Part shown: piece by piece, positions 31,931-64,000 of the stretch
Position numbering within the stretch: the stretch's first letter is position 1
How the letters are laid out: each line of letters starts with the position of its first letter
Origin: Psammoneis japonica
Taxonomy: Eukaryota
Direction of reading: 5' to 3'
Length of the DNA stretch: 64,000 nucleotides
Assembly (NCBI GenBank): GCA_008632985.1
Contig: QPGO01000073.1
Span: 248,001 to 312,000, forward strand
Translations under genes and position numbers: made by a program
Notes under the pieces: generated by a model
The model's database searches: none
What the model was told of the DNA's origin: nothing
The model's input: the letters and a program-made list of their open reading frames with translations, nothing else

Positions 31931-32083
31931 AGACTGCTGCAAAATCACTGCACAGGTTGCGCCATGTGGGAAAACTGCTCAAATGTGTGCACGCATGCAA
32001 CCACAACCAACATGAGAGAATGCAATGCCAAGTGACATTCAACGGTCATGACTGAGAGTTCCAGCCTTGGTTTTTCCAACCAA

Positions 32084-35296: not shown

Positions 35297-35515
35297 ACCA
35301 TAGGTGAGATCCGAACAGGATCCAAATTGAAATGTGTAGCTGCTCCTTTGAGTCGTCGAGAAAAGTCGAAAGACTCATCTGCACCGTTGACTGTTATTTG
35401 TAGGACTATTCGATTCCAACTGAGAAAATCTGTGCAGCAGTCGAGCAGTAAATTGCAAATAGCAAACCTTTTGCTTTTGACAAGGCCATATCAACCAAGT
35501 CGAGTGAAATGAAAC

Positions 35516-41273: not shown

Positions 41274-41390
41274 GGTGATACAGGGACGAATGTCGAATTT
41301 ATCAGAACCGTGAACCGTCACAACAAGCGTCGTGCGTCGTCGCAGGATGCTCGGGTTCGCATCGTGGCATTCCACATCGCTAAAAAAATG

Positions 41391-42840
41391 CTGACACGAT
41401 TTTTCTCGTCTGTCAATCACTCGCCCCCAAATTGTGATTGGAGCCAGGTTCCATGGCTCCAGGGTGCTGCTTGAGAGATTAACACTGGGCTCTATCTACT
41501 AGCTAGTGCTAGCTAGGCTAGAGTAGCAACTAGCTCTAGAGATCTAGTCTCTAGAGTAGAGACTCTAGCAGGGCACTCTGCTGGCCACAGGAGACTGCTT
41601 CTGCCAAGCCCCGGGAGCGCACTCTGCCACCAGAAATTGCTGGCTGCTGCTTCTGCTCATGATGGAGTGCCGGCACAAGATGAAGCAATTCTTGAAGATG
41701 TACACTACAACACACAGTTAGGCCTAAGTTGAAATCAAACACAACGCATTGTCTCTTTACCTCGCTTCTCAGAATCAACTTGTGGCAGAAGCAAACGTCG
41801 TTTCGAACGCGCTCGGCACACAAAGACATGCAGCACAGTTGTCAACATCCAAAAACATTTTCATTTTGCATTCCAGCCTCAAGGAGCGACTCCCAGGGTG
41901 CAAATCCATTCACCATTCGCTTGAAGATGTTTTTTGGAGGGCATTCTTTCACTTGTCCATCGTCTGGGTCGATGTGCCGAATGCAAACGCCCATCCTGAC
42001 GCTTTCCGGAGAACACATGTGGAAAAACTCATCCATCTCAAACTCAATGCTTTTGTCACACATGCTTGGGATGTCAGGCATCACTGCAAATTCAAACGTC
42101 ACCTTGGCAGAATTGCCGCAGACATCGGACTCCACAGCACTTGCGGCGCACACGCAATCAGAGTCATTCCTCTGACACCACTTTCTGTGTCCACGCACAA
42201 GTGCAGCACGTTGTCTTGGAGGAAGCAACCCGTTTCTCCGTCATGGTCTCTGGATGACGTCTCATGATTAGACTCACAAGTTGCAAAGCTCGCAAGAACG
42301 TCGTCGTCGCAATGCTGCAGTGGACTTGTGCCACAGTGTCTTGACTGGCCGAAAAGCCAAAACGAGCATCCGCCGTCAAATCCAACATGACCCACCCCTT
42401 GTTTTTGTTGGCATCACGAGAAGAAGTTGGGCAATTTGTCGTTCCACTTGAGGCAGGAGGCATGTTGTCACACACCTCAATTGTCTTGGTTTCAGACACC
42501 TCATTTCCAGCTGCGTCAGATGTGTTCCAGAGGTCCGAGCAAGCATGTGACTGTTGGGACAAGCACCGTCATCCCGCAGTTCCTCAATGTCAACCTGGCC
42601 ACCAAAGCACGGGTCATCATCAAGTGCCAGGACCGTCTCCAAGGGCGGCACCCTGTTGACGGGGAGGCTTTCATCCGTGAAACCATGCAACGAGAAAAGT
42701 GCGGGATTCTTTGTGTCAGCTTTGGGTGCATTCACGTTAGGATCAAGGCACTGTTCTGCCGGCCATGGTCTGGTGCAAGATCCTGAAACTCCCGGGTTGC
42801 GGTCACACGTCTGCCAGCAGCTGTCGCCTCCATCATGCTG
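41391..42840 (-). pseudogene. TpA-converted duplicate of 44413-45842 (3' end and downstream flank of the large Cys-rich gene)
   Basis: Collinear direct duplicate offset by ~3.0 kb; multiple frameshifts; Tyr codons changed to His/Cys (DNVLYLYMDTE vs DNVLHLCVDTE). Confidence 0.95.
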
Positions 42841-44734
42841 CACTCGATTTTGGGGGGATCAGTGACTCCAAGAGAGGGGGGGAGGGGAGAGGAGAAAGAA
42901 GGAGGAAGAGGAGAGAAAGGAAGGAGAGAGGAAGGGGTTGAGAGGGCAGCGAGCTTGATCTAAAATGCGGAAGTGGTTTGAAGAGCGATCCTCACTTCTT
43001 TCTCACCCGATGTGTCAGATCTCCGGGTGCTCGCATGTTAAAGTAATTTGGTGTGGTGACACCGATGAGACATTGTAGTGTTGAAGTATCTCTAGTATGA
43101 ATTTTACGTAGAAATCTACGCAATTCAGGAGTTTCCCTCCGACACCAAACAAAAAATCGACCATGACAGCTGCAAGAGCCGGTAGTCGAAATTGTCGCCG
43201 TCACTTGTGATAATGCTGTGACAACAAAGCACGCATTAAAACTCTCTCTGATAAATGAATATACGAAAAGAGAGGTGTGAAAAACGTGAAAAATGGATAA
43301 GAAATGCCTTGGTACTTTTGCCATTTTTAGAACTCGTCTCTCACTCTTGCGTTGCAATTTCTGTTCGTTCTTGACAGATTGAAGAGCCCTCCTTTAAGTA
43401 TCGAGCATTAATGGCGTCTCGTATGCTGATGTTTTGTATTTCAATCGTTGTGGCTCCAGTCGACTCTTCTCCAGTCGTCAATGAGGGTTTGCTAGTCATC
43501 GGGGTGGCGTTTCAGGATTTCTACAGTGTCGCTGCTTGCGGCGTTGCCGCAGGTGCCATTGACACGCGACTTGAAGAGATTGATGGCCATACATTGATTG
43601 TGGGTGCGGTTTGTGTCGTTTTTCAATCTACAATCTACCACTTTGGCTGGAAAAGTCCGCGTATGAGCGGCAGACGAGGTTGCCCTCGTCTTTAAATAAC
43701 ACGGGCCACTGCCGAGGTTGCTGACTGCAGCAGCGCCTCGGCAATTTTTTTCTGCAATAATGTTCATGTGGCCCCACCTCTGAATATTGAGACGGCTGAC
43801 GAGAGCCAAGGGGTTGCTCCCCGGTAAGGCGTTGACTGGTGCTTCCAAGGACGGGAGTGCCTTCAACCGCCGCAGACCCGAATCTCCGTTGCGATAGGGT
43901 TCACCTGCCCTCAAAGGTGGTTTGGATTGTTAAAGTTTTGCAGCTGGGTGGCACAGGGAGCAGGTGGCACTGGATCAGCTGTGCAGGAGCATGGGAGTCT
44001 ACGGTGTTGGAGCAGCTGGTCGTGGTTCTGTTGCATTGCAAACGTTACTTTTGTCCTAGAGTTCATCTCTGTGGCATTGTTTCTGACTTCAGTCATTAAC
44101 AGCGTGTTCCATAGGGCACGCAAGTACGACTGCTGCTGCAACTCTTACGACCACTGCTGCAACTCTTGTGACTACTGCTGTTGTTGCGACCACTGCAACT
44201 CTTGCGACCCCTGCTAAAAAAAAACAAAGGTTGTTGATGCTGTTGGAGCGCAGGAATCGGCAGCGTTGATGCAGCTAGGCAGCACGGTACTCGGTGGCAT
44301 TGGAGCAGCCAGACGGTGAAGTAGGCGGCAGTGTTTGAGTAGCTGGGCAGCATGGGAGTCGGTTTGGACAAGAAATAAAATAGTGAATTATAAACTCATG
44401 GCTGAATGAAATCTGACACGATTTTTCTCGTCTGTCAATCACTCGCCCCCAAGATTGTGATTGGAGGCAGGTTCCGGGGAACCAGGGTGCTGCCCTCACT
44501 CTACTCTAGAGAGAGTAGCTACCCTTGCCACTCGAGAGACTAACACAGGGCTCTATCTAGTAGTAGCTAGTAGCTACTGCTCTAGGGCTGCTCGACATAC
44601 TAGCTACAGGAGACGGGAGTGCACTTCTACTAGAAAATGTCGACTGCTGCTTCTACTCTAGATAGTGTACCGGTGCAAGATGAAGCAATTCTTGAAGATA
44701 TACACTACAATATATAGTTAGGCCTAAGCCGAAA

Positions 44735-47700
44735 TCAAACACAACGCATTGTCTCTTTACCTCGCTTCTCAGAATCGATTTGTGGCAAAAGCAAATGTCG
44801 TTTCGAACGCGTTCGGTACACAAAGATATGCAGCACAGTTATCAACAGCCAAAGAACATTTTCATTTTGCATTCCAGCCTCAAGGAGCGACTCCCAGGGT
44901 GCAAATCCATTCACCATTCCGCTTAAAGATGTTTTTTGGAGGGCATTCTTTCACTTGTCCATCGTCTGAGTCGATGTACCGAATGCAAACGCCCATCCTG
45001 ACGCTTTCCGGAGAACACATACGGAAAAACTCGTCCATCTCAAACTCAATGCTTTTGTCACACATGCTTGGGATATCGGGCATTGCTACAAATTCAAACG
45101 TCGCCTCGGCAGAATTTCCGCAGACATCGGACTCCACAGCACTTACGGTGTATACGCGATCAGAGTCATCGCCTCTGACACCACTTTCTGTGTCCATGTA
45201 CAAGTACAGCACGTTGTCTTTGAGGAAGCAATCTGTTTCTCCGTCATGGTCTTTGGATGACGTCTCGTGATTATACTCGCAAGTCGTAAAGCTCGTAAGA
45301 ACGGCGTCGTCGCAGTACTGTGGTAGACTTGTGCCACAGTCGTCTTGACCGGCCGAAAAGCCAAAACGAGCATCCGTCATCAAATCCAACATGACCCACC
45401 CCTTGTTTTTATTAGCGTTACGAGAAGAAGTTAGGCAATTTGTCGTTCCACTTAAGGCAGGAGGTATGTTGTCATACACCTCAATCGTCTTGGTTTCAGA
45501 CGCCTCATTTCCAGCCGCATCAGATGTGTTCCAGGTCCGAACAAGCGTATAACTGTTAGGACAAGCACCGTCATCCCGCAATTCCTTAACATCAACCTTA
45601 CCACTAAAGCACGGGTCGTCATCAAGTGCCAGGACCGTCTCCAAGGGCGGCACCCTGTTGACGGGGAGGCTTTCATCCGTGAAACCATGCAACGAGAAAA
45701 GTACGGGATTCTTCGTGTCAGCTTTGGGTGCATTCGCGTTAGGATCAAGGCACTGTTCTGCCGGCCATGGTCCGGTACAAGATCCTGAAACTCCCGGGTG
45801 GCGGTCACACGTCTGCCAGCAGCAGTCGCCTCCATCATACTGATTCTCCTCCGTGTTGAGATCAGGGTCGCAGAATCTGTCACCCGCTTCTTGCAGTCCC
45901 CGTCCGCGTTGCTCAATCCTCTCCAAGGAACGACCTCCACTGCCGCTGCCTGCGCACTGCTCGCTGCTGACGGGTGTCCCGACAACAGATGGGTCCAAAC
46001 AATACATGGTGGCTGCATCGCAAAGGTTCAATGGCTCCCAGTCGGTCTCGCCGTCGTTGTTTTCGGGTTTCATGCAGGTGTGCATACAACAGTCACCCCC
46101 GTCATACTTGCACTGCGGAGTATTCCATGGGCCTCCATTGCAAAAGCCGTTGCCTGTCTGATTGAGCCGACGTTCGGTTCCGTTCGTGTCGGACGGATCC
46201 AGATCAAGCGATAAGAGCTGCTCGCAAGTGAAATCATCATACTGAGGATCTGAATAGTCAATGGGCTCTGGTTTCTCCACGCAAGCATCGATCGACGTTT
46301 GTCCAACCTGCAATGTGATTCTTCCATCCGGACACACCTCGCACGACTTGCTACCATACCCGGCTGCATAGGAGTTCACAGGACAAGGCTCGTAATGGTC
46401 CAATCCTCTGCGAGCTGTGTACGTCCCTGGACCGCACAGATCGCAAGATCGCATGGCTCCCGTCCTGCTGCTGTACGTGCCAGCTTCACAAGGGATGGCG
46501 CCGGTGCCCTCGTCTGAGTAGAACCCAGGCAGCACTTCGACACAACGCGTGCTTCCTTCGTCTATGGTTTCCGTTCCGGCGTCACACTCTTTGCACTGGA
46601 TTGCTTCTCCCTTGACGTCGGAGTAATGATTCGGTGGACACAAAATGCAACCGCTTTGTCCATCAATGGGTTGATACGTCCCTTTGTCACAGAGGTCGCA
46701 CTTGGCGTTCCCGGTCCCTGTTGAATACGATCCAGCCACACAAATCTCGCATCTAGTTGCCTTGGCTTCGGAATAATATCCTTCCTGACAGGCTTCGACT
46801 GCGGCCATAGAGGAGTTTCGATAGCTTCCAGCTTCGACGGGTTCGCAGAGGCCTGTCTGCATGTTGAGGAGGGGGTGGAAGCCTTCGCCGCAGCGGCACT
46901 CGTAGTCGACCCGAAGTGCCTCATCGTCTGGGTGTCCGATGTCTTCTGGAGATATTTCACAACTATCCTCCCCATCACAAGCGGTATACGCGACCGTCTC
47001 CTGCATAAACCCACTGCCTGTCTTGACTTCCAGCACGAATATCTCTCCACCTTCAATTGTGGAGCATTCGTCAAGGCTTGCAGCTTTCAAAGGTCCGTTC
47101 GCCTCCGAGAAAGCAACATCAGTACGCACGTTTGTTCCCTGTTCTGTCGTGTCTCTTCCAACCTCGAGGCAGGTGTACTCAACAGTAATTCCGTCGCATT
47201 CTTGCACGGTGCATGAATCTGTCTTCTTCCCATCACAATCCTGGCGAGCTCCACTCAGACAAGCTTGTCTCTGAGTCCACCGGGCGGTGTGTGTCTCTCG
47301 CTGTTCGACGTAAGATCCTAAAACTTTACTAAGAGCTTTGTACTCATCAGCGAGGTGATTGCAAGCTTCTGAAGGATTGGCGCAGTTGTTTAGTCTTGTG
47401 AATCCCTGTTTCGCACATGCACATTTTAAATCCTTTTCAAGCCTTTTATCCATTTCAGTTGAGATTTTGTAACTGTTGGGGACAGTTTGACAACATGCAG
47501 ATGGTGAGGGAGCGCCACCTGGCCCCGTGCAAAACCTGGTACAAGTTCTGTAAATTTTCTCCATTTCTTTCCTAACTCCATTTCGCTTTCCTTTGAGGAA
47601 GGCAAGCATCAGATCGGCTGAGTCCCATCCATTCACAGATGGCTCGACGCTGGTGCGATACTGGCAGAACAGCGGAATAGAAGGTTTGAACGTCGGGTCT

Positions 47701-49610
47701 GCGCAAGGATACCCGTACAAGAGGCTGTCGATGGCGATGATGTCCTTACCAGACGGTGAGCAATTCATCGTCCCTCTGTCAGCTGTAAGCCAGTAGGGGA
47801 GTAGGTCGATCTCTTTGATTTGATCTGAAGAAACACAGGTGTAAAACACAGTCAGCGAATTGAAAGTATCCTGCTCAAGCCCGGGCATTGAGTTCTCGGG
47901 TTCTGAGATGAACCTGTCAAAGGGGAATCCGTCGCATGCTTGCGACCCAAGGAGGCTGGCATCGATTTCACAGCTGTTTACGTCGGTGTCGCACGGGAAA
48001 ACAACCTTTCCGGTTATGTCGTCGGAGCCATCCAAACACAACGCCGTTCGGCGAACAGCCTTGATAACCAGCGGCACCGTTTCAGTAGGACAGGTCACTG
48101 ATGTTTTCCAAGTCGTGGACGTTGACATGCGGTATTCCAGACCACCAAAAAGCGTCGTGTCAATATTGCCCGAAGTGTCAAACACGCCAGCCCAAGGATC
48201 AAAGACAACCTTTTCCATAAGGCCGTTCAGAAGGTCGAAGTGAGGGTCGATGTAGCGGGCCAAAAAATCCGTGGGAATGATTTCGGGCATATTGACATCG
48301 ATATCAGCCAACTCGGGTATGTCCAGTTCTTCTGCTAGATAGTCAAGAATGTCCTCCACAATCTCATCAGGATTGATATGTAGCTCCTTCAAAAGCGCTT
48401 CTGCAAATTCATACACCATGTCTTCCAAATCACAAATGGCTGTCAATGCGTCCGGGCACGCCAAGAACGAGAACGCGCTGATTACCACGTCGAAGGCTTC
48501 GAACAATGGAGCAAAAGGTTCGACCGCTCCACCAACTTTGTTGAGGGGAACCTTGATATCTTCAACGAACGACTGAACGGCCTGGTAGGCTGGTAGAATT
48601 GTGTCATCTAGATACGCGTCGATTCTTTCCATATCCGTGTTGAATCGTTCCAAAGGTGGTATCGCCTCGCTGAACTTTTCGAGATCAAAAGTGCCCGTGT
48701 AGCTCAGCCTCCGGTCCGAACTGTGGCTGCCACCGGTGGAATCGTAAAACTCTTTCAATGTCAGCCCTTCTAGTTTGCGAGAATGAAGCTGAATCAAACG
48801 ACGAATAGTTCTACGAGCCTCGGGGTCCTTGACGTCGTCCAAGAGAGTGGTAAGAGCCCTCGCAGCGTCAGTATCGGGTGTCACAGTCCCGTCATCGACT
48901 CGAAGATTGCGGCGAGACACGGCGTCTTCGATCTTCTTGAAAAACGCTTGGACATTGTTAACGGTGCAAAGACTCTCATGGACTCCGTAAAGCGCGGGCC
49001 GCAGAGCATATCGAAAGACGCTGTTTATTAACCCCTTGCATTACACAGAATGAAGCAACGTGTTAGTTCACTTCATAATACGAAAAAATAGAAAAAAGAA
49101 TGCGTGGTGTATGCATTACTTACGAGTTTTCCGACGGCCTTTACAAAGTACCGCTGCATTTTCGAGTTCAATTCGCACTTTTCATCCAGTTTATTTTCGA
49201 GTTTCACAATTTTTTCGGCGAATGTTTTAAATGGCTTTAGTCGCCTCCCATACTTTTTGATGTAAGGAATTTTCACCGAGATACCAATGGCATTAGCAAC
49301 TTTTTTTCAATGCCCTAGATACCTTGACGATTTTCCAGACGTCGCTAGCATATGCCGCACAAAACGGAGAAGCCGAAAATTTCATAGCTTCCACGATATA
49401 AAAGATCTTGAAATTCTTGTAGTTCGAGTTGTAAATAAACATTGGCTCCTCAATTTTTCGAATCCATTCACCGGCATCGCGTAGATCCTGAGGCCCATCT
49501 TCGTCAAACTCGCAATACGAAAACCCGGTGTCGTCAGTGGCCTGACCCAAGCTCTCGTTCAAACTTCCCATAGCCACAACGGCGAGCAAGAGAAGGACTA
49601 GTCGCTTCAT
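44735..49610 (-). CDS. Large secreted/surface Cys-rich protein with ephrin-receptor-like (GCC2/GCC3) repeats and Notch/LNR-like modules, multi-exon
   Basis: Signal peptide MKRLVLLLLAVVAMG at 49610; 1346-aa ORF 44880-48920 with CxxCxxGxY repeats and two YDGGDCC modules. The true C-terminus is uncertain (44880 or 44735). Confidence 0.8.
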
Positions 49611-49809: not shown

Positions 49810-52800
49810 ACCATGTTAAAAGCTGATGAGTCTTCCGCACTGCACACCAGTGTCACAACACCACCAAAGACAATTCAAACGGGGGGGGGTCAATGCATCG
49901 TCGCAATTCCAACATCGACCATTGCACATCATCACATGTTGATGGGTCCAACGGCTTCTTTTTATGGTGAAACAAAACCCCTGCAACTTGGTCATGACAT
50001 GATGTGGTGAGGCAGCATCAGAGTGCAAACAACGCCATTGCATCATCGTCATTGTGAGTGTGGCATGCATGGATGCTGCAGGTTGCTTCACAAATTTGAA
50101 CGAGCTGACCTCCGGGCAAATCCTTGCCTCCGGGTGTCTGTTGTCCCCACTTCCTCTGCAGTGCTTGGCTGGCTGTGCACCAGCCATTTGCACAAAATTG
50201 CTGAAAATTGCGGCATTGCATGGCCGGCGGTGCACCAACTGCATTTTGAGGCTTGTCTTTGATGGTCGATGTGTCAGCAATGCAGTGTGTCTTAAATGAT
50301 CTCATCGCTTCAGACAACAAAGCAAACATTGAAATTCATCCTGCTCAGTTTGTGGAGTTTGATTTGCTTGGTGTGTGTCATCAAAAAAGACATTGGTTTT
50401 TGCTGTTGCAAAATCTCTTGCTGCACCTTGGTTTCTGTGTCAAATCAACCAGAGAAATTTGTTGCTGCTTTCCCCTGGGCACAACCGCATGAGTCCGTTT
50501 TTGGAGTCATTTGCTGTTGACAGAAAACCTGACTGGCACCAACCAAACAAGAAGACAACAAAATGTGACTGAGTTTGAAGAGCACAAGGAATTGGCATTC
50601 CCAGATGATGATGATGATTCAAGCCATGAAAGCCAAAGCAGCACAACATCCATCGGCAGTCAAAGCAACTCATCCGATGAAAAAGAGGATGAGACTGCAG
50701 AATGGTGTGAGACTCCGTTTGGTCCTGGTGAAACGGAACTTCATTTTGGTGATGCTGAAGACACTTTTTTGAAGAACCACTTTGAAGAAACAGGACAGAT
50801 GAAACAAAACCTGGTGACCAAAGTGAGAACTTTGCACTTGCAGCAAGCGGCAACATCAACATCAAACATGCGCCATGAGCCAGATGAGGCAATGGCAGCA
50901 AATGAGATGTTCAATGTGCTGTTTGATCCTCTGTCAGTTTGTGACGAGTTTCTCGGTGCAATGAACACCAACCTGCAGCAGAAAGATTGCATCTCAGCAA
51001 TTTTTGCAGAGCTTCAAGCGTTTGTTTGGATCACATTGTGGCTCTGCTTCTGCAACAAGGGACCTGGAGAATTCATTAAATTTCCTGAAGACCACCCATC
51101 TGTCCAGAATGAAATTGACAAATTGAGTGGTGGCAGCCCTGCCAAAAAGCATGAGTGCCTGCATCATCTTTTGTGAGGAGTTTGGAAAGAGACACCCAGC
51201 CAAGCCAAATGTCATCAATGACTTGGTGCCCTGTCTTTGACTGTGATTGGTCATTGGAAATTCTTTTTTTGAAATGAGGGGTGAAGCTGCATCAAGCATC
51301 TGCTGCATGCCGGGGAAGACTCAGCTGGTGACAGATGATGACAAGCTTCGCATGCGGTCTTTCTTGTCAGCAAATGTCTTGCTTGCAAGGAGCAAAGAAC
51401 TTCACTCATTTGGCCCAGCATGCAATTCTGTCAATTCCCTTGCCACTGGTGCAGAGCTTTCAGGACACATGACACACAACTCAAAGAGTGCCACAGATGC
51501 CCTTAAAACAAATCTTCTCACCACATCTGGGCAGCAGAATCCTAAGTTGAGGCAGTTTCCGGACACAATGACACTTGGAGATTGAGGACATGGTGATGAT
51601 GACAGCAACAAGTGTTGTGATCTCTTGGAAGCAACAGACTTGGACACAGTGAACACCATGAAACATGGGCCAAACATGTCATTTGAGTTTGGTGAGACAG
51701 GACACAAGACAAGCCTCAAGCAGCATGTGACGTGTTCCAGCTCTAGCTAGGTGGGACCTCGCACTACTGAACTGTGACATAATTATTTTTTATCATCCGT
51801 CGTATGTTTCGCACGTACATTTCTACGTGTTCTATTATAAAAAATTGTTCCACACTGCCTGTTTTGCGAAGCCAAAGGCTTTCTGTTATCTGCACTTATG
51901 TCAATAAAAATGCGCTGGGTATATTCTTTAATGTCTAAAGAATATACCCGGGCATACTGTAAAGAATGTACTTCAAGTGTGGAGGAGGAGATACGTTCGC
52001 AAAATTGCCTCTTTTTCTGTTGGCGATCATTCACATATACATTGCTTAATAATTTTACTACGGAGCTCGCACGTAGAATTCTACGGGCCCAATGTCACAA
52101 AAAGTCCCACCTAGGACTGGAACCCGTCATGTCATTGTGGAGGGCGGACCTGCCATTGCAATCAGCGCACACAAAAAAGTGGGTAGAATGACACTGTGTT
52201 TGACAGCTTGGCAAAATGGAGCAGGCCGTGTTGCATTTCTGCAATCTGCCAAGCCACAGCTCAGTGCATCACAGGTTGAGTGTTGAGTGAGAGTGTTTGA
52301 GAAGTGAGCTTCCCCACCCTGAATGTTTTCACTCAGCAGCAAGTGGCAGCATGCATCATGGGGGCCATGGACATGCTTCCAATTGCTGGATTTGCTGGGC
52401 AAATCTCTTTGTGTGGAAACATGAAAGCAAGGCTTGCTGGAGTGGTTTGTGCCATGATTGTGGTGATTGACTTCCACTCTGTCGCACCACTTGTTGCCGA
52501 GGTTGAGGAGCGGACCATCTGTGACAGAAATGGATCTGCTTGAAAATGTTCTCCACATCAAATTGCAGAACGACCCACCACCAACTGATCTCTCTCATTC
52601 AACAAAGTCAATTTTGCATCTCTCATGGGACTCCAAAGAGATGAGCTTGCACACATTTCAAGGTCGCGTGGTCATCCTGCGAGAGGTGCCAAGGCTGTCT
52701 TGGTGGACAGGATTCACAAAGGACCAGCCAAGCATTTGGAGCCAACTGGGTTTGAATCGTTGGTTAAGAGAACCTTTCTGAAACTGCTGCCCGACAAAGA

Positions 52801-54290
52801 CAAGAGTGCCCACAAGCTCGGATTGCTCAATGAATGGAAAGTCTGGGGTGCAATTGGCCCAATCCTGTCTGACCATTTCGAGTGTGACTTGGCAGAGCTG
52901 AACAAATGTGGACTTGTTGGTTGGCAACATTCCAACTGGTTGGCAACGTCACCAGACGGATGGATCACATGCAAATCTTGCCCCCCCTTCCTGCACGGAT
53001 GAAAGTGGCAGAGCTGATTCAAGTCTGAGTGACCGACTCTGTGCTGGATCAGAGATGAAGTCACCTGCAGGAAAGGACACAAAGAAACTCGTCCAGTGAC
53101 ATCAAGATGAGTTTGGCAATCATTCAATGCACAAATGTGATGATGCTCTTTTCAAGGCGTTGGTTTGCAAACTGGAGTGCCGAGTCCAAGTGTTGCATCA
53201 TGCCGTGGTTTGCAGCTTTGAAAAAGTTCTGTTCATGGTGGCCAATGAATGCAAACCAATGTTCTCTGTTGTGGTGTCTTTTTGAGAAGACCAGAAATGC
53301 AACTGCGAGACTTTGTCATTTCAAACACATCAAAGGGACTTGGAGTGGGTGCACACAACAGCATGGGACAATGAGTCGAATCCAAAAAACCACAGGCCAC
53401 ACCAAGCAATGCTCACAACATTGATCATGACACCATTTTGTTTCAATGCGCAATGTGGCACAAGCTGCTTCTAAAAACAAGTGCAGCAAGAATGCCACTG
53501 CCTGTGGCAAAGTGCATGGTGTCATCCATTGCAGCTTTCTGTTGGAACAAGGGAAAGGGAAGGATTGATGAAATGAGCCAACACTTGTTGCTCCACATGA
53601 TGTGACACATTTCATGTGGAACACCAAAGCAGCTTTTGAGTCTTCAAGAAATTGAAAAAAATGTCTCTCTGAAGAAGCAATGTCATCATTCCTTCCCAAA
53701 AGAAGCACCCAAAGGAAGAACACTGTGTCAGATCAAGCACGCACTTGACAAAAGAGAAGGGTCTGTCACAGCTTTTTTGAGTGAGCTTGCTGCCACATGC
53801 ACCACAGTTGCACAGATGCCTGCGACACCTGCGTCTCCATGCACGGCCTTCCACACACCAGTGTAGAAAGCTGTGCAGAATTTTTGCATGAAAATTGACC
53901 AATTTCATGGTCAAACGATGAGTCAACTGCAAGATTCAATGGGTCTCTCGAATTCAAATGTCTTGGTCTGATTTTGCAAAACACTTGAAACACACAACAC
54001 TGCATGGCCGGCCGTGCACTGTGCACTGGGAGTGGGGGCAGGTGTGCTGCCGTGCCACAGCAGAGTCGTCGGGCACACAACGTGCGCATGTGTGGGGCCT
54101 TGCCCTGCACATGACAACATCGTGCCAGGCAATGTGCCGGCCAGGAGACCTCCAACTGCATGGACCGCCACACGTCACCCATGCACTCCCTTCCCTTCTC
54201 TCTCTGCTTGCAAGCCTCACACTCCACTCCCTTGCCTGCTTGCTGCCCCAACAATGCCTGAACCCTGAGCAGTTCTGCCTCATGCTGCAA
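49810..54290 (+). mobile_element. Decayed DNA transposon block with DDE-transposase-like and YqaJ/lambda-exonuclease-like remnants
   Basis: Acidic N-terminal region (50511-51176); LVTDDDKLRMRS; GD*GH (probable GDRGY) at ~51577-51591; CGLV...WLATSPDGW, EMKSP and QVLHH at ~52905-53200. TpA-depleted except for the nested MITE. Confidence 0.55.
51729..52128 (+). mobile_element. 400-bp MITE, unconverted TA-rich copy
   Basis: Terminal inverted repeats GACG(T/G)GTTCCAG...TAGGTGGGAC...TGTGACAT; flanked by ATGT on both sides; perfect 14-bp-stem hairpin at 51917-51949. Confidence 0.9.
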
Positions 54291-54297
54291 CGCAAAT

Positions 54298-54694
54298 GAC
54301 AGGTTCCAGTCCCAGGTGGGACTCCGTGTGACATTGGGCCCGCAGAATTCTGTGTGCAAGCTCCGCAGTAAATTTGTTCTGCAATGAAAATGCACATGAT
54401 TGCCAACAGAAAAAGAGGCAATTTTGCGAATGCATCTCCTCCTCCATGCTTGAAGCACATCATTGACAGTTTGCCCGGGTGCATTCTTCAGACATTGAAG
54501 AACACACCCAGCGCATTTTCATTGTCACAAATGTTGAAAACAGAAAGCCTTTGGCTTCGCAAAACAGGGAGTGTGAAACAATTTCAGAGAACATGACATG
54601 CAGAAATGCATGTGCATGACATGTGACACGATCCAAAAAACCATTGATGTCACAGTGCAGCAGTGCCAGGTCCCACCCAGAGCTGGAACGCGTC
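54298..54694 (-). mobile_element. Full-length, TpA-converted copy of the same MITE (inverted)
   Basis: Aligns end to end with the reverse complement of 51729-52128; flanks are caaat / taaat. Confidence 0.9.
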
Positions 54695-55520
54695 TAAATT
54701 GCAGCTCCCCATCTCGCCCCCACCAGCTCAAGTCTGCCTCTTGCCCCTCTTGCTCTGGCACCATTGACCCATGCGGTGACCACGCCTTCTGCTGCCAATC
54801 CCTTGGACACAAAACAACCATGTCCAATGCCATCCATGATGGCCCACGTGCCACTTTCCAAACACTTGCCCTGCTTTCCGGCATCTGCGTGCTTTCTCTT
54901 CCGCCTCACATCATGAACCAACCAACCTCCTGATGCCTCATTCACCCCTCAAACGCCCCACCAATGCGGGCATCCAACTCACCCCAGCCACCTTTGCTGC
55001 CTCCCCCATTGGCCACCGACACCTCGCCATTGATGTCGCTGTCCCCAACCCCCCCCCCATTGCCTGCTCCTGGCTTGCCTGCCCCCGCCCTCAACCCTCA
55101 CACCGAGGCACACCATGCAAGCACAAAACGGAAGTTCAACGGAACCCATGAGACTCAAAATGAAGCAACCCTCACATCCGCCCTTGACAACACCGGCAAC
55201 CACCTCATTCCCTTTGCCATCGACCATCTGGGGGCCCCAGGCCACACTTTGCCCATCGCCTTCTTTTCTGCGCCAACCAAGACCACCCCATCCCTGCCCC
55301 ACCCGCCCCACCCTGGACCACTGAACCCTCCTTTCAACACCCAGCTGCTCATGCCGCACACGCCTGTGCCCAACAATCCCCGTCCGCCATCCTCCCTGCC
55401 ACCACCGACACCTGGCAAACCATCTCTCTGCCGAACACTTTGGCCTGACCCACCACTCTTCAACTCCGTCACAATGGGGTCTTCAAAGCCTGAGCCTTGC
55501 AATCACCAAATTGCTTGCTG
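54695..55520 (+). mobile_element. Decayed 3' end of an RLE-type non-LTR retrotransposon (CCHC knuckle plus restriction-like endonuclease)
   Basis: CPSC...DPCGDHAFCC...NAIHD, KRPTN (probable RPAD), LAIDVAVP, HLIPFAIDHLGAPG. Confidence 0.75.
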
Positions 55521-55779
55521 ACCAACTAACCCGCTACTCCACCAAACTACAATCTCAAACATCCAACCCCAACTCGAAATCCATCCCTTTTCCTGCCTAC
55601 ATGACTCAGTCCGTGCAGTTCCACCTCCGCGTCTGTCCCTTCCCCCGTGCCACTAGCTAGTTGCACGTGAACTCCTCACGCGCGCGTACGGTACTACTAC
55701 CGTACATACGGTAGGTAGTTTCCCTAAAACCCATGATAACTTGAACTGCCAACAATAACGTCGAGAATCATCGAGGATC

Positions 55780-58700
55780 GTGTTCTGCGACGAAGGAGCC
55801 TTGACCCACAAGCCACAAGGAGCGACAATGAATGGACATCGGCGAGCGAGCCTCGGGCGTCTCGATTTTTCGGTCGACCGTCGGCTGTGGGGAAGAGCAG
55901 GGGAAGTGAATCAAATTCGGAGTATCTTTGACAGAATATGCGAACCCGAAGCACCCGTTCAAGTGTGCATGGTACACGGCTTGTCTGGAACGGGCAAGAC
56001 GAGGCTCTGTAGGGAATCGACAAAGCACGTTCCGATATTTTTGGAAGGAAAATTCGAGCAATACGTCGACTTTTCATCGCCGTATTCGGCCATCGTTCAG
56101 GCCCTTGATGGGCTCGGCAAAGCTTTGCTGCTCCGAGAAGAGGACGATAAAGACGTGGAAGATTTTCGAAATGCTCTTTCTCTTGAAGGAAAAGTCCTCA
56201 CCCGGTTGATCCCCAGCTTTGCTCAGCTCGTGCTCAATGAGGACTTGTGTAAGTCTTCGTCGGGAAACCTCAACATGGCCTCCGAACGCCTTGCTGTCGC
56301 CTTGCGGGCCTTCTTGCGCACCTTCTGCACGCAATCACGTCCATTGGTTCTGTTTATTGATGATGTACAATGGGGTGATGTAAACTCATTGCAGCTGCTG
56401 TCAGCTGCAGTTGCAGATCAAGAAGCACATCACCTGTTGCTGCTGATGGGCTACCGAGATGAGGAGTCGAGCAGGATAGACTCGTTTCTTTCGTCGCTAC
56501 CGAGTTCGGTCCACGATGTTCCTGTTAAGAACTTGAATACTGAAGCTTTAAACGATATGGTGGCGGAGATCGTGTCCCGAGATCCCAGCGACACAAAGGA
56601 ACTGGCTGAGCTCATACACCAAAAGACGTTTGGCAACCCATTCTACGCGATGCAGTTTCTGGAAGGTCTAAAAACAAACAAACTGCTCACGTTTGATATA
56701 ATGTCTGTGCGATGGAACTGGAAGATGGAAGAGATACGTTCCCAAACAGTTGTAGCCGAGAATGTTGCCGACTTTGTGACAAGAAGAATTGTAGAATTGG
56801 ACTATAAAGTCTTGCAGGTCTTGCAGCTGGCCGCTTGTTTGGGCTTTCTCGTTGACCTACAGCTACTGCGACGTTTGCACGACGCATTATCCGAGTTCTA
56901 TCCCGAGAATCAAACACCTGACGAATCACAAAAGGAGAATGAAACGGCGACGTTTAACTCTTCTATTGCCGTCGCACAAGAAGAGAATCTAGTTGTGGCT
57001 ACGGAATTCCAGTGTAGATTTACCCACGATCGGATACAGCAGTGCGCGTACGAGCTCATCCCCGCCGGTACACCCCGTGAGCGGCTCCACTTTGCTATCG
57101 GGTTACACATTTCTCAGCTTGGTCAGGATCAGTTTGTCTTTTTGGCAGCAGATCAGCTCAATCGCGGTTCATCGTGTATCAAGAATGATGCAGACCGACT
57201 GGCACTCATTCAATTGAACGTTAAAGCAAGCAAAGCTGCCCAGAAGAGGGCTAGCGTCGTTTTGGTGGCTGACTTTCTCTCCCGAGCTGTAGATCTGGTT
57301 AAAAGCTCTGACTGGGACAGATCGTACGACCTGGTTCTTGACCTGTACTGTAGTCTTGCCGAGGTCGAGTCGACGAGGGGGGATTTTGACAAAAGCAACG
57401 ATTTGGTTCAGACTGTACTGAGCAATTCAAAAAGCGATAATGACACAGTTCGGGTATTGGCAGCACGGGCGAAGGCACATTTTTCGCGCCTAGATTGTCA
57501 AGCAGCTCTCAGAGACTCACGAAAGGCGTTGCGTCTTCTCGGCGTTCACATGCCAATGTCGAACTATCTTTCGCTCTTTATCGAGCTCAAAAGGACGAAG
57601 CGGCTTTTACAAGGCTTCTCAGACAATGATCTCCTCGAGCTGCCTCTAATGACAGATGTAGACAAGGAAGAGGCCGTGATGATCTGCCTCGATTGTTGTG
57701 TTTATGCCTGGAGCAATAACGATTCTATTACGTACGTGCTCTCCTGTCTTGAAATGATGAAACTGTCTCTCCTCCACGGAAAGAGCGACGTAACTCCCCA
57801 GGCGTTTGGTGCTTATGCTATAGTGCTTGCTTTCATGGGCGAGAAACCGCAAGCCTTCCGGTTTGCGCAGCTGGCCTTGAATTCCATCGCTTCTCGTAAG
57901 TCCATTCCTCCGACGTATGTGTCTGCGTATTGCTTCGTCAATCACGTGAAGCTTCCTTGTGCTCTGAGCATCGAGCCCATGCTCACCGCGTATAGAATCG
58001 GAATCGAAACCGGGGACATGCTATGGGGGTGCATCTGTTTGGGTCTCTACTGCGACTTCTACAAGTTCTGTGGACTGCCTCTTGGCACGTTCGCGTCGGA
58101 TATGCGTCGCTTTGCGGGTCAGCTCAAGCTTTGCCATCAAACACTCATGCTTAGTTTAATGCTGCCAAACTATCAGCTAGCGTTGAATCTGTCTGGGCAG
58201 TCGGATGACAGTGTTGAGATTTCATGGGACGCGATCAAGAAGCATGGATTCCTCGATGATGCTGATACGGATGTTGAGAACAATAATGCTACCATCGTTC
58301 TTGATTACAACCAGATCTTTAACGCCTATATTCTGGGGGAACTAGATGTTGCTCGAGAGGCTCTCGATCGAGTCTTGAGCCGTAAAATCGGGCAAAGGAG
58401 GTACGAGGGGAATCACTTTCTCAATTATATGTTTAACTTCCTCGATGGTCTTGTTGGACGTGAAGTCTACGCTGCAACCAAGAAACGGCGATATCATAAG
58501 TTTTCCGAGCAAGCTCTGCGATGGCTGACGAAGACAAATACGGTCGACACTTTCCCGCTTCGGCGTCTGTTGGAAGCGCAGAAGGTGGCAATGTGCCGTT
58601 CTGTTGATGGAGAGACTGCTAGACAGGGCTACAACGAAGCCATTGCTCTTTTGGCACGAGCTGGTTTCACTCATTTCTGTGCAATTGCAAACGAGCAGAT

Positions 58701-59024
58701 TGGAAAAACATGCTGGTATTGGAGGACAACGATTGGGCAGAGCACTACCTCGCGAGTGCCCTCAGACTCTACCAGGAATGGGGCGCAAGTGTCAAAACCC
58801 AGCAGATGCTTGATATGTATGGCTTTCTGACAGCCTCTAAGGCCAGTGTCAAGAGGACGTCAAACATTCGCGGGTTGGCTCGCTTTGACTCGAACAAAGA
58901 TACCAGTAAATCGGAGGAAGTATCCAGCTCTCGTCGGGTATCCGAAGCGACTATGCTTCCCGCGAATGAAGTAGAGCTGGATTACCACAGAAGTGGAGAA
59001 ATAGTTCTGCGGGGTCGCACTTGA
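55780..59024 (+). CDS. COG3899-like P-loop ATPase (AAA_16) with helical/TPR-like C-terminus; frameshift near 58705
   Basis: GLSGTGKT Walker A, LVLFIDDVQWGD Walker B, KTFGNPFY, FTHDRIQQCAY, AADQLNRG; the tail YQEWGASVK is in ORF 58710-59024. First ATG is at 55828. Confidence 0.9.
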
Positions 59025-59399
59025 CATTGTCGGTAATGTTGCCGGATGGGTCACACTCATTTTCTCGGACCTGGTCGTTCGAGAAACAGGGCCTAGGACG
59101 CCGTTCAATATATGAAAGGAGAAACGATTCCATCATGGACCCGTTTGCCTGACCATGAAATGAATTTCGCGGCACCCGACTTTGCACGCCGTTCCGGTGG
59201 TGCTTTCAAGTAGGGTGACCTAAGTTGTCATGAGGGCAATCTAGATTTTCTGAATTTATGTTGAGCCTTGTAATACTTGATATGAAACAGCACAGTAAAA
59301 AGTTGCCAACCCATGCACGTTTGTCTGTCAATTTGGGTTCACTCCTCTGACATCTAGAACAGCTGTGAGTCCTTGAGGAGGTCATTCCGACTGCAACAA

Positions 59400-60131
59400 C
59401 TCCATTCAATTTCTGCTCTTCATCTTGAGACAATTCCTCAAACACTTGCAAAAAGGCCTGGGTTCGTTGTGCCCCCGAAAGACCACAGGGTGTTTGTCCT
59501 TCGGCTCCAATGACAAAAAAGGGAACACCTGACCTGTGATGGCGTCATCACCTGGATTCAATTTCCTCCAATGCTTGCTGCATGCTCTCTTTGCTCTCCA
59601 GAAATGCTTGAGTCTCTTGCAGCTCTGGGATTAATTTTGAACTTGCCACCTCGACCAATGCACCGCCCATGAGAGAAACATTTTCACCCTCTTCATGAGT
59701 GGCTTCAAAGAGAACTTGGTTCACAAGACTCATGTCAATGCTGTGCCTTGTGTTTGCAAACCACACGAGACGATGCACCAAAAGGGTGTGTGACCACCAC
59801 TTCCAATTCAAAAATTTTGCACTGTCTTCTTGTCATTTTGGATCTCGCATCCATCCACTCCCACCCCAACGGCGGTGATTGCATGCTTCAAACTCTTCTC
59901 CCACCTTGTTGGTGCCATTGTCAATCATGTGAGTTTCCAGTTGACATTGACATCATTGCCCTGAAAGTGGTCCATGGCCTTGTTCAACCGCATTTCCCCC
60001 ACCAAACACCAGGGTTGGGCCAAATCAGAGCAGACTGCAGCACGAGCGGGTGGTTTTGCAGAAAGAGACATGGCACACTGGATGGCAAGCAACAACAATG
60101 CAAGTGATGAGAGCCTCTGCAGAGTTGTCAT
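59400..60131 (-). pseudogene. TpA-converted DsbA/FrnE-like oxidoreductase pseudogene
   Basis: Signal peptide; VCSDLAQPWCLVG..RL.KA; HRLVWFA; LFEATHEEGENVS; FLESKE; SGVPFFVI; LSGAQ..QAF. Contains stops and frameshifts and no Tyr. Confidence 0.75.
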
Positions 60132-61299
60132 TGTGTTGGTGTCTGCCGAGTCATTTTTCCAAACCAAGAAACAGGTTGCAATTTCAAATTGCCCTTTTCC
60201 CGCCTTTTTTTTTGGTTTTCATTTTTGCACACATTTTGTGGAGGGGCCTCTTTTCACGGAACGTGCCTCCACACTCCGTTTCAAGGAGATGCCCAAGGAA
60301 TGTGGCAAGCATGTTCCATGTGACCATTGCTCTCTTTGCACTCTACAATGATGACCCATTCCCGGTGTGCATTGCACACAATGCACGTGGCAAAATTCAT
60401 GAGATTGCCCAAAATCGCTGACGTGCATCATGGGCAATGCACGTGACATCTTTTTGCACAACTTTGTTGTTTGACTTGTCTCTTAAAGAGCCTCAGTTAC
60501 AAATGCCAACACATCCTTGTCATCTGCTGTGCTTGACATGCTTTGTGCTGTTTTTCCAGGGTTTGATTGGCTCAGCTTGTTTTCCAACAATTGCTTCATT
60601 TTCCACCACTCAGAAAGCACGCGACAATGCACGCAAACAAGACACAAAAACTTCTGACCCTGCTTTGTTGTTGAGAAGCATTTCCAGGTGAGACAAGCAA
60701 AATCTGGGATGACAATGACCCTGCATGGAAAAAAAGATGCAGAAATGGACTGATGCATTGCCCACAGCACACATGCAAAGAAGCTGTGCAAGTTTTCCCA
60801 CCACAAGTGCCCAGTGTTTGTGCATCAGCTTTGATGAGACAGGTTGACTTGGCACTTTTTGCTTTTGGGGAGGAACAACCTTCCATCCACTGCAAGATTC
60901 ATGTGGTCACTCTGATTCAAGCTTGGCAGGGGAAAGGCATGAGAGGGTCTGAGTTGGTGTGCATCATGTGCAGCATCATGTGCAGCATGCACTGTTGTGC
61001 ACATTTTGCATGCATGCATGTGCATTTAAATGTTGCTGCACTCCAATTGTGCATCAATCATGGGTTTGTGCGAAGGACAGATCAACTGCACAGAGTTGAT
61101 TGGATGTCAAAAATTGCAAACACAATTGCTTGATGATGTTGACATCTCATGTGTCAATGACAATTGCATCCAGACAATCTGTCATCATGATCACATTTTC
61201 CAAAAGGCCTTTCATGTGCACAAGCATCACAGAAGCTTCAGGGCATTGAGAGCTGATTCAGAGAAACCCGGAATGATTGAGCAAAATCTAATCTCATGA

Positions 61300-63828
61300 T
61301 TTTCACTTTTCACACTTCACTCTGCTTTTGTCTGTGCTCATTCTTTGAGCACATTGCATTGTGGCAGACAATGGCACTCATGAAATTCTGAGCTGAGCAC
61401 CAAATGTTGGAAAACCAAAATTCCCCAAGGGTGGAGCCTTCAAAAAATGTCAACAGCACCTTGCAAGGCATGTTTTTCCCAAGAGCGCACTTCAGGTTCA
61501 GAAGTGTTGTCTGCAGTGCAATCTCAAGAAACCAGAGATGATGAAAATTTGAGAAATTGCCGCTTGGGTCCAAGAAGTCATCAAAGACCTCAAGTTCCAC
61601 CCTCCCTTTTAGGAAGATCAGAAGATCAAGGCAACAAGCTCAAGGACATCCTTCACAATCTTGCACTTGCCATTGTCAAGGTTTTGAAATTTTGAAGCAT
61701 GCCTTTGACAAGTTGGTCAAGTTTTTGGAGCATCTGGAGGTTGCCAAGGACACATTTGACTCCATTCATGTCAAGGCTGATGCCAGCAGCAAGTCTGGAT
61801 CAAAAGCAATGACAAATCCAAACATGGTTCCAAAAATGGTTGCCAATCTTGTGCCAAATGGTCTGAGTCCAACAAGTGGTGCAATTGTTGTGAAAAGACC
61901 ATTCATGTTGTGGACAAGCGCTGGGTCACATCAAGAGACCAGGCAGCAGAAAAAAAACTCAAGGCAAGTTCATCAAAGAAGAACATGAAATGCAAGGACA
62001 AAGAGTGCAGCTCTGACACCCTCACTGAGGAGAAATGCCAATTGAAAAATTGACTCACAGCAAATCTGATGAATGACTGTTGTGTGCAGAGGAGTCGTGC
62101 GCATCACTGGATGTCAGGAAGCCCAGACAAAAGGCCAAAGTGGCACACACTGGTCCACCAGCAGTCATTGCCTGCATGACACTTCTCCAGAAAAAGAGAA
62201 AAATGAGCCTTTGTGTGTTCTGCTCAACAGCGGAACATTGTCGACCACAATTTTGCAGAAGTTTGTGTGAAAATTGAGAATGAAGAAATCTGCTGCCAAA
62301 ACTTGGGAAACCAAGGGTGGGCTCTTCACAACTGACAGCTGCTGTTCAACTCAGTTCTCATTGCCTGAATTTGACAAGCATGAAAAGAATGAAGCCACTG
62401 TGCATGTGGACATCAGCGCTGCTTCTTCATGTTGCTGTGATGTGGTCATGGGACATGACTTGATGTCCAGTCTTGGAATTGTCCTGGACTTTGTGAGTGA
62501 AGAAATTGAATGGGAAGATGCCATGACCACACCCATGAAGAACCCAATGCCATTTTGGATGCCAAAGTGTTCGCACTGATGGCCAGTCACATTGAAGAAT
62601 CTCATGCTGTGAAAAGTCTTGATGACAGGATTGACAAAATCCTTGCAGCGACTGTCATGCTGCCAACCTCAATGATGCAATGGCTGCTGCAACTCAGCCA
62701 ACTCCAGTGGAGCAGAAACAACTGAACTTCCTCCTAAAAAGATTGGAGCCCTTTTTTGTGGTTCTCCAGGCAAATGGACAGGGAAACCAGCGCATCTCAA
62801 GGTGAAGCTGGGTGCATGTCTGCATCACATGATGTCATTTCCCGTCCACAAGCCTTGGAGGCAACCACTTGCCAGGAGGTTGTGAGACCATGCAAGCCAA
62901 AAGTGCTAAGAAAAATGACCATTTGAGTGGGCAGCTCCAACCTTTGTTCAACCCAAAAAATGGCCAAGTTTGGTTTCCACCCAACTTCCCTGAACTGAAC
63001 AGTGGTCAATGCATGCACTGCATCCTCTGCCAGATGTTCAGGACATGCATCAGAAGCCAGAAGGTTTCAGGTGTGCAAACTCACTTGATTTAAACATGGG
63101 ACACCATCATGTCAAGTTGGTGCCATTTGCACAGCACTTGCACAATTGTCATGTTGTGGGGCAAACATGAACATTGCAGACCACCCATGGACATTTGTGG
63201 AGCTCCAGACATCTTTCAGGGGGCACATGAGTGAGCTGATGGCAGGTCCAGAGTTTGTCAGGATGCGTGTTGACACCACATGCCATGCACTGAAAAAGGT
63301 GACTTCAAAAACCACCTCTCAACACAGATGATCTTCATGTCGCTCAAACAAGCTGGTGTCAAGCCACCAGAAGTTGACTGCTTGGGCTTTCACATCACCT
63401 GAAATGGCGTTGAGCCAATGCTTGAGAAAGTGGAGCAGATTTGCTCCATTGCAACTCCTGCAACTTGCAAGGAATTGCAGTGTTTCATTGGTGTGTCGTC
63501 AATTGCTTTTGGGGCATGTGGCCTGGACGGTCTCATGTGCTGCCCCTTGGCCAGACTTGGATGAGCACAGAACAAAAAGCCTTCAAAATGTGAAGTGCAC
63601 TGTGTCAAAATGTGTGCTGTTGTCATGCCCAAATTTCAACAAACCCTTTAAGACACACACGCTGATGCAAGCAGTGCTCAATTGGGGGTGGTTGTGACAC
63701 AAAACAACTGACCCATTGCCTTCTGCAGTTGCAAGTTAAATGCACCAGTGCAGATGCACTGCACTGCAACAGAAAAAGAACTTCTGTCCATGGTTGAAAC
63801 ACTTGAGGAATTCCAAAACATCCTGTTT
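61300..63828 (+). mobile_element. Decayed Ty3/Gypsy LTR retrotransposon (gag-protease-RT-RNase H), interrupted by a MITE
   Basis: VLLNSGT protease site, WETKGGLFTT, CDVVMGHDLMSSLGIVLDF, PDIFQ..MSELM, LLSCPNFNKPF, DAS, PIAFCSCKLN, TEKELLSMVETLEEF. Confidence 0.9.
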
Positions 63829-64000
63829 GACGCGTTCCAGCCCTGGCAGGTGGGAGCTCGTAGTGCTGACGTGTGACACAAATAATTTTTGTCATCCGTC
63901 GTATGTTTCGCACGTGCATTTCTACGTGTGACATTAAAAAAAAATTGTCCAGACTCGCTGTTTTGCGAAGCCCCAGACGTTTTACATGACGAATTTATAG
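63829..64000 (+). mobile_element. Partially converted MITE copy running off the window end
   Basis: GACGCGTTCCAG terminus; tcatccgtcgtatgtttcgcacg is identical to ~51793-51815. Confidence 0.9.

Follow-up and report, generated by a model that had tools for sequence, protein, structure and literature searches.

Seven nearly TpA-free blocks alternate with ordinary DNA in a 64-kb window of the Psammoneis japonica genome (assembly GCA_008632985.1, contig QPGO01000073.1, positions 248,001 to 312,000 of the forward strand; all positions below are those of this window, the whole stretch analysed). The same window harbors four copies, A to D, of one family of miniature inverted-repeat transposable elements (MITEs). 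We propose that a local process acting at the DNA level converts TpA to TpG or CpA, i.e. A:T to G:C on either strand, in selected stretches of this diatom-like genome, that it is much faster than the accompanying loss of CpG and prefers the target 5'-T-A-Y-3', and that the MITE copies have been caught at different stages of it. Overall, we consider this explanation probable. The data, which comprise one window, four MITE copies and contigs from a single sample, establish the direction and spectrum of the change, its action in place and on both strands, its trinucleotide bias and its restriction to blocks.

A natural control is provided by a gene and its dead partial duplicate. The gene at 44880-48920 contains an open reading frame (ORF) of 1346 aa with Ephrin_rec_like domains. 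Its 3' part together with the downstream flank (44397-45842) recurs about 3 kb away as a frameshifted partial duplicate at 41375-42840 (86.5% identity over 1473 nt in a self-blast), and a conversion zone at 41567-43038 lies over this duplicate. In the alignment of 44660-45842 with 41660-42840 (1185 columns), 47 sites are TpA in the gene copy; of these the duplicate has TG at 23, CA at 15, TA at 7 (mostly at the zone edges) and transversions at 2. Thus 40 TpA were lost, 38 of them to TG or CA, and no new TpA arose. In addition, 21 of 71 CpG became TG or CA, and six gap columns put the duplicate out of frame. Other substitutions number 27 in the 1185 columns (19 transitions and 8 transversions). 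From these counts we estimate that per-site loss exceeds neutral divergence about 100-200-fold for TpA and about 10-25-fold for CpG; TpA loss reaches completion by about 3% neutral divergence. The two strands were affected in balance (23 TG vs 15 CA, p 0.26); by base, a single strand carries 24 A>G and 15 T>C at TpA. Because the gene is intact, with 47 TpA and an open frame, whereas the duplicate has lost TpA and gained none, TA is the ancestral state, and the change took place in situ, on both strands and on a sequence that is not mobile. The left edge of the conversion zone falls at about 41567-41760, inside the duplicated segment, and the right edge at about 43038, some 200 bp beyond it. 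A TA-dense stretch at the zone edge is unconverted, with 14 TpA in 90 bp at 41480-41566 of the duplicate and 11 at 44485-44574 of the gene copy.

The MITE family has exactly four members in the window (blast of copy A against the window), and these sit where an earlier sequence-only reading of this DNA had placed them, with copy D best aligned at 1542-1723. Copy A (51729-52128, + strand, 400 bp) is TA-rich and essentially unconverted. Copy B (54298-54694, - strand, 397 nt) is converted, and copy C (63829-64000, + strand), which is cut by the window end, is partly converted. Copy D (1542-1723, - strand) is a truncated and fully converted fragment with 71-77% blast identity to A and B and is the oldest copy by CpG loss. 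TpA counts are 34 in A (51729-52127, 399 nt), 1 in 397 nt of B, 8 in 172 nt of C and 2 in 182 nt of D, and the respective CpG counts are 18, 10, 13 and 2; the observed/expected ratio for TpA in copy A is 0.99. The terminal inverted repeats of A and B are about 25 nt long and align with one small indel. On direct reading, copy A is flanked by the 4-bp target-site duplication ATGT (51725-51728 on the left, 52129-52132 on the right), and copy B by AAAT on both sides.

Further support for the nature of the element comes from Logan contigs of three sequencing-run rows of one sample from one study, the only public sample with this region and probably the one that gave rise to the assembly. Among the contig pieces listed (10 of 4181), two show the empty site of copy B, joining 54293 to 54696 with 402 nt skipped and the four letters AAAT shared. 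The family is represented by 4109 contig pieces, with summed depths of 3e4-2e5 in the MITE bins compared to about 100-140 in host bins, summed contig depth not being equivalent to copy number. Pattern scans with conserved MITE core patterns gave no match in metagenome contigs. Short, non-coding and present in many copies, bounded by terminal inverted repeats and a target-site duplication and missing from empty sites, the element has the features of a MITE. The whole of copy A forms a long foldback (folding z -6.3, compared to -3.75 for copy B) with a central perfect palindrome at 51917-51949 of 14-bp arms and a 5-nt loop. This hairpin had been described as broken in the converted copy; however, the homologous stem of copy B retains 12 Watson-Crick pairs, has G.T pairs at the other two positions (arms read by eye) and is only weakened.

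Site-by-site comparison with copy A revealed how far the other copies have been altered. Among the 33 aligned TpA of A, copy B keeps a single one and carries TG at 17, CA at 5 and transversions at 10 sites (TC 4, TT 4, AA 1, GA 1), and it keeps 7 of the 18 CpG of A. At the 14 TpA sites overlapped by copy C, 6 are converted (4 TG, 2 CA), 5 are kept and 3 are ambiguous, and all 8 CpG are retained. Copy D keeps none of 17 TpA and none of 9 CpG sites; its two TpA are its own. The claim of the sequence-only reading that the family occurs in graded states, with A TA-rich, C partly and B and D almost fully converted, is therefore correct. Together with the pseudogene these copies form a graded series of TpA and CpG loss: 6 of 11 scorable TpA and 0 of 8 CpG in C, 38 of 47 and 21 of 71 in the pseudogene, 32 of 33 and 11 of 18 in B, and 17 of 17 and 9 of 9 in D. 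The value of 38/47 is counted over the whole alignment of the pseudogene, where most of the kept sites lie at the zone edges. TpA loss rises along the order of CpG loss, in agreement with a graded and cumulative conversion as had been suggested. TpA goes first and saturates and CpG follows, because CpG decays far more slowly than TpA.

Copy A itself is not pristine, since at two sites it carries TG or CA against the family majority. Among the rows listed in the variant profile of the family (the best 40 of 405 by support), 80% of family depth has TA at 51884-5, where A and B have TG, and 72-74% has TG at 51853-4, where A and B have CA. Copy A also has TG where B and C keep a CG of the terminal repeat. 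Outcomes differ at further sites: at 51943-4, TA in copy A is replaced by TG in B and D and by CA in 69-70% of family depth, and at 51784-5 TA in A stands against TG in B and CA in the family majority (both among the rows listed).

The loss of TpA is a property of discrete blocks, located at 1-1999, 7388-8315, 26480-33272, about 41759-42960, 49964-51728, 52132-55526 and 59356-63648. Ordinary DNA of the window contains about 20 TpA and about 28 CpG per 500 bp. Observed/expected TpA amounts to 0.01-0.04 in the seven blocks vs 0.55-0.61 outside. For CpG the ratio is 0.15-0.37 in six blocks and 0.77 in the block at 41759, the youngest one, vs 0.92-1.03 outside, and CpA/TpG reach 1.4-2.1 in the blocks. 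Hence, the signature of CpG decay, a deficit of CpG combined with an excess of TpG/CpA, is present there as well. In every block CA and TG are about equally frequent, also in a gypsy-like element that lies on the + strand (493 vs 477). This element is a degraded Ty3/gypsy-like retrotransposon at 59356-63828 (+ strand) with observed/expected ratios of 0.03 for TpA and 0.21 for CpG. It was recognised by an RT_RNaseH_2 match at about 63658-63825 (E 1.1e-7, 32.3 bits with a cut-off of 29.8, read through stops) that ends at the insertion point of copy C, which sits in the RNase H part of the gypsy-like pol. Apparent Tyr-to-Cys/His changes in this pol, judged against a general consensus, carry no weight here. 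The largest TA-free block, 26480-33272, has 3 TpA in 6793 bp and no recognised domain. Pfam searches yielded no mobile-element domain among 146 stop-to-stop ORFs from the TA-free blocks and, on ORFs and read-through frames, no recognisable origin for three of the blocks. Self-comparison of the window detected no direct repeats inside the blocks that could serve as a long-terminal-repeat pair for a test of in-place conversion. Long ORFs overlap on both strands of the blocks, and about 20 kb yields 146 of them with a length of 72 aa or more. As the stop codons TAA and TAG are gone, such long ORFs are spurious and can be mistaken for genes.

The few TpA left in the blocks point to the sequence context of the process. 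The blocks (20,375 bp) have 31 TpA left, namely 25 YTAR, 6 with TAY on one strand and no RTAY, whereas 299 YTAR, 918 sites with TAY on one strand and 534 RTAY were counted outside (chi-square p 7e-19). Relative to this background 18% of YTAR, 1.4% of one-strand TAY and 0% of RTAY sites are retained, a pattern that fits a per-strand rate at T-A-Y about 4 times that at T-A-R. The ancestor is known in two pairs, and there 16 informative sites have a Y behind the A of the edited strand while 5 have an R (p 0.027). The gain in the blocks shows the same tendency, with YTGY and RCAR at 21.8 per kb exceeding YCAY and RTGR at 15.3 per kb. Because the leftover TpA are almost all YTAR, the preferred target is 5'-T-A-Y-3' and YTAR sites survive longest. 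Since T-A-Y reads R-T-A on the other strand, these data do not decide between A and T as the attacked base.

Copies A and B share a host block (49964-55526) that is TA-free, CpG-poor (observed/expected CpG 0.29-0.37) and of low copy number. Outside copy A it contains 10 TpA, 4 in 49964-51728 and 6 in 52132-55526. No Pfam domain was found in its ORFs or six read-through frames at E values up to 5. Copy A is thus nested in a TA-free block as previously stated; however, the block had been called a transposon, and this part of the description is supported neither by a Pfam domain nor by copy number. One ORF of the block (52589-52999, + strand, 137 aa) has YqaJ-like recombinases/exonucleases of giant viruses and eukaryotes as its nearest protein-atlas clusters, with a score of 0.79 below the threshold of 0.9 and no Pfam match.

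The contigs contain a homologous version of this host block without copy A. In one contig, 51710 and 52141 are separated by 25 letters; its depth of 69 is about half of the local total of about 135-150. Alignment by eye of these 25 letters with the window flank (26 letters) shows 11 transitions, 2 transversions and 1 gap. Reduced to purines and pyrimidines, they match the window flank at 23 of 25 positions; the transitions include CA/TG swaps, and the target word occurs once, as GTGT. Between 51400 and 53600 the block exists in two versions of nearly equal depth (about 67 and about 69) that are 17-18% different over 52141-53448. Between 53449 and about 53550 the two seem to become one; beyond this, from 53551 onward, one contig equals the window exactly and a second one differs at 53581-53585. 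The A-free version may be either the other allele or a paralogue. Given a homologous A-free version that differs mainly by transitions, copy A entered late, after the two host versions had separated and after the block had lost its TpA; alternatively, the process has stopped there. An assembly artefact is not the explanation for the block because independent contigs reproduce it with 0-5 differences. At 51504, the first letter of a surviving TTAA-type TpA, the window has T but contigs of run X1 read C, giving CpA (2 contigs, depth 153.5/153.5). This is the only difference in an otherwise matching 381-nt contig piece; it may reflect a recent conversion, variation between strains or a mistake in the assembly.

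Several results weigh against the explanation proposed here. Transversions account for 10 of the 32 TpA losses in copy B; one of them, 52039 A>T, is common to 58% of family depth (among the rows listed) and may be a subfamily difference. The very high-copy MITE copy A is untouched while its low-copy host block is fully converted. The outcome test for T-A-Y relies on 21 informative sites, 7:4 in the gene pair and 9:1 in A vs B, and is not significant for the gene pair alone. The variant profile of the family, limited as it is to its best-supported rows, is partial and biased. Moreover, B, C and D agree in outcome at 12 of the 15 TpA sites with joint conversion, copy B is biased to TG in the orientation of the element (17:5, p 0.017), and copy C shows more neutral differences from A than copy B does (30/126 and 18/126) and is yet less converted. 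The concordance and the TG bias could result from inheritance from a converted master or from a strand-specific step. Accordingly, most of the TpA loss in B, C and D might have arisen in masters that were still transposing, in which case TpA content would mark lineage rather than insertion time. We regard this as quite possible. Of the TpA sites converted in both copies of a pair, 8 of 10 have a common outcome in B and D and 4 of 5 in B and C. The jointly converted CpG sites of B and D agree in 3 of 3 outcomes, and these two copies have 5 neutral differences from A in common. In addition, six TpA sites of A are among the rows listed, and there a single converted letter accounts for 56-84% of family depth; A and B carry the same converted states against the majority at 51853-4 and 51884-5. 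Still, with a TG bias of 77% a concordance of 65% is expected by chance, and 12/15 is not significantly higher (p 0.29). Outcomes are discordant at 51833, 51992 and 52074, there are private CpG losses (four in D, several in B), and the pseudogene shows that full conversion is possible in place. Inheritance from masters modifies rather than excludes a DNA-level process. Given the outcomes common among copies, we conclude that part of the conversion of B, C and D predates their transposition and was inherited from partly converted source copies. The sequence-only reading had placed conversion after insertion, which the pseudogene confirms as a possibility in situ and which the shared outcomes and the converted share of family depth restrict to a part of the changes. 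As C is more diverged than B but less converted, exposure time is not the sole variable and we conclude that place matters, too. The suggestion of the sequence-only reading that TpA content could date insertions is only partly supported: TpA loss is complete at such low neutral divergence that a TpA clock resolves only very young ages, part of the loss was inherited, and the order of C and B contradicts a simple clock. Dating by TpA needs CpG loss and neutral divergence alongside.

Other explanations concern direction, template and origin. If the family were TA-poor by origin, copy A could have gained its TpA by C>T changes at CpA/TpG like those of repeat-induced point mutation (RIP), and this would agree with TG or CA being carried by most of the family depth at TpA sites of A (among the rows listed) and with the consensus of B, C and D at many sites. 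However, the path from A to B needs only loss of TpA and CpG (22 TA to TG/CA and 10 CG to TG/CA events), whereas the opposite path would call for C>T and G>A making TpA plus T>C and A>G creating 10 CpG from TG/CA. Copy A keeps 50 CpA/TpG, so the reverse process would have hit only about a quarter of sites (24%), yet all six in the arms of the palindrome, an event with an estimated chance of 0.24^6 or about 2e-4. Members differ in outcome at single sites, the gene/pseudogene pair sets the direction in this genome and a 400-bp ancestor without TpA would itself need explaining, all of which makes the reverse direction extremely unlikely. The earlier view of TA as ancestral thus rests on the gene and its duplicate, the A-versus-B spectrum and the differing outcomes per site more firmly than on the hairpin from which it had been deduced. 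RNA-level A-to-I editing by an ADAR-like enzyme with a 5' U preference, followed by reverse transcription or RNA-templated repair, is very unlikely as well. A>G after U does correspond to the neighbour preference of ADAR as described in the text of a recent preprint (10.64898/2026.01.13.699255), and one block is a retroelement. However, TG and CA occur on one strand of one molecule (23:15 in the pseudogene, balanced in the gypsy-like block), copies of a DNA transposon are converted, and the tandem duplicate of a host gene, with homology reaching into the downstream flank, was converted in place within a zone that extends about 200 bp beyond the duplicated segment. The sequence-only reading was therefore right to discard RNA editing and reverse-transcription errors. 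We find it scarcely conceivable that the blocks are foreign DNA that had such a composition on arrival or that they were shaped by selection against TpA and CpG. The ORF at 52589-52999 gives a weak, giant-virus-leaning lead (0.79, below the 0.9 threshold) and the targets in Bigelowiella natans are integrated viruses according to the same preprint (10.64898/2026.01.13.699255), but here the loss is equally seen in a resident gene's copy when this is compared with the parent 3 kb away, and one MITE family spans the whole range of conversion. Selection on coding or RNA function is unlikely because the blocks are full of stops and frameshifts.

The main rival in regard to mechanism is a mutated thymine: 5-hydroxymethyluracil or a base-J-like mark placed at R-T-A in silenced DNA would mispair with G and lead to T>C. 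A>G on one strand is indistinguishable from T>C on the other, 5'-T-A-Y-3' being 5'-R-T-A-3' when read on the complement, and dinoflagellate DNA carries 5-hydroxymethyluracil preferentially at TpA. However, large-scale TpA loss is not known from organisms rich in 5-hydroxymethyluracil or base J, and we know of no such modification in diatoms. We therefore consider it improbable.

A deaminase acting on DNA adenine would account for the observations in the following way. Degraded retroelements, MITE copies, low-copy blocks and a dead partial gene duplicate would be its targets. In these stretches CpG, too, gives way to TpG/CpA, as is the case for methylated DNA, and diatom transposons are CpG-methylated; the blocks may therefore represent silenced, methylated chromatin to which the enzyme would be recruited. 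Copy A, a recent entry into an already converted block, is nearly untouched, copy C has lost about half of its TpA and no CpG, copy B every TpA except one together with roughly half of its CpG, and copy D all of both. An ADAT2/TadA-like adenine deaminase acting on DNA is our preferred, if doubtful, candidate for this enzyme. The A34 that it naturally targets in tRNA lies behind the conserved U33 and, in tRNA-Arg(ACG), in front of a C, which would fit T-A-Y.

The ordinary DNA between the blocks codes for proteins in long intron-free ORFs, namely two DUF6824 proteins, two PAS-adenylate cyclases, a gametolysin-type peptidase, a cyclin and an NB-ARC/TPR protein. The DUF6824 genes adjoin each other at 17986-19077 and 20628-21827 (-), and this domain is typical of diatoms. 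All named homologues of one of the cyclases are from diatoms (Attheya with 47% identity, Cyclotella, Skeletonema, the Thalassiosira group and Epithemia), and its best unnamed match is 66% identical. The cyclase paralogues at 33391-35298 and 37563-39490 are 81.7% identical over 1.9 kb. As both keep normal TpA and CpG, duplication as such is no trigger of conversion.

A process of this kind has been described for the chlorarachniophyte Bigelowiella natans, in which integrated DNA of nucleocytoplasmic large DNA viruses (NCLDV) and virophages undergoes TpA hypermutation (Mettrop et al., bioRxiv 10.64898/2026.01.13.699255). According to the text of this preprint, 231 of 302 nuclear mutations in mutation-accumulation lines fell into two integrated viral regions; with one exception the mutations in these regions were A>G or T>C, every one of which hit TpA according to the authors, with a de novo rate at targets about 1000-fold above background (10.64898/2026.01.13.699255). 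The genome is further reported to contain clusters of windows poor in TpA and rich in CpA and TpG and 324 low-TpA coding sequences enriched for reverse transcriptase and DDE domains, and the authors propose a defence against invading DNA by an ADAT/TadA-like deaminase (10.64898/2026.01.13.699255). The changes observed here likewise turn TpA into TpG or CpA (38/40 in the gene pair, 22/32 in A vs B) and are confined to regions, seven blocks, against a normal background. In contrast to B. natans as presented in the preprint, the host here is a diatom-like stramenopile, conversion is saturated whereas the NCLDV region still has 3.3% TpA, and the targets include MITE copies and a dead host-gene duplicate besides a gypsy-like element. 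We also observed CpG loss in the same blocks and the T-A-Y preference, while the main text of the preprint does not contain CpG, trinucleotide, context or diatom as terms (10.64898/2026.01.13.699255).

Fungal RIP also wrecks repeated and mobile DNA by transition hypermutation and leaves a dinucleotide signature by which its targets can be recognised, and the process may by analogy serve the same end. However, RIP itself can be rejected, as it makes TpA from CpA by C>T, whereas here 40 TpA were lost and none was gained, and as it mutates both duplicates, whereas here the gene copy is intact. Repeat number, in addition, does not predict the state of a sequence here, the low-copy block being converted and the high-copy MITE copy not. 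The CpG decay of methylated transposons resembles the loss of CpG to TpG/CpA in the same blocks, but deamination of 5-methylcytosine cannot remove TpA, and CpG loss is about 10 times slower here. Hyper-editing by ADAR and editing of cDNA by APOBEC also give deaminase-type, context-dependent clusters of transitions in mobile elements, but they act on RNA or single-stranded cDNA and mark one strand, whereas both strands of resident DNA are marked here. We found no report of TpA conversion in diatoms in the literature, our search being short on subscription journals. While the kind of process has been known since 2026, the lineage, the saturated state, the series of MITE copies, a dead host-gene copy as target, the coupling to CpG loss and the T-A-Y motif are new.

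For the annotation of such genomes our results imply that Tyr, Ile and Leu codons are systematically altered in TA-free blocks. As far as the preprint text allows to judge, natural rewriting of A:T to G:C in DNA at a defined motif has been reported only once before, in a chlorarachniophyte and without a known enzyme. Its signature in a diatom-like genome suggests that the process is widespread among major marine algae. The findings point to a natural DNA adenine deaminase, which would be of interest for base editing, and the T-A-Y target as well as the link to CpG-depleted, presumably methylated DNA are directly testable. We tentatively suggest that diatoms possess an active defence of the same kind as that of Bigelowiella, deaminating DNA adenine at 5'-T-A-Y-3' in silenced chromatin, and that this defence is old and widespread in the SAR group (stramenopiles, alveolates and Rhizaria). 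If so, TpA would be erased from any silenced DNA, dead copies of host genes included, the decay of TpA and CpG would provide a fast and a slow clock for the history of mobile elements, and the enzyme would be a natural DNA adenine editor.

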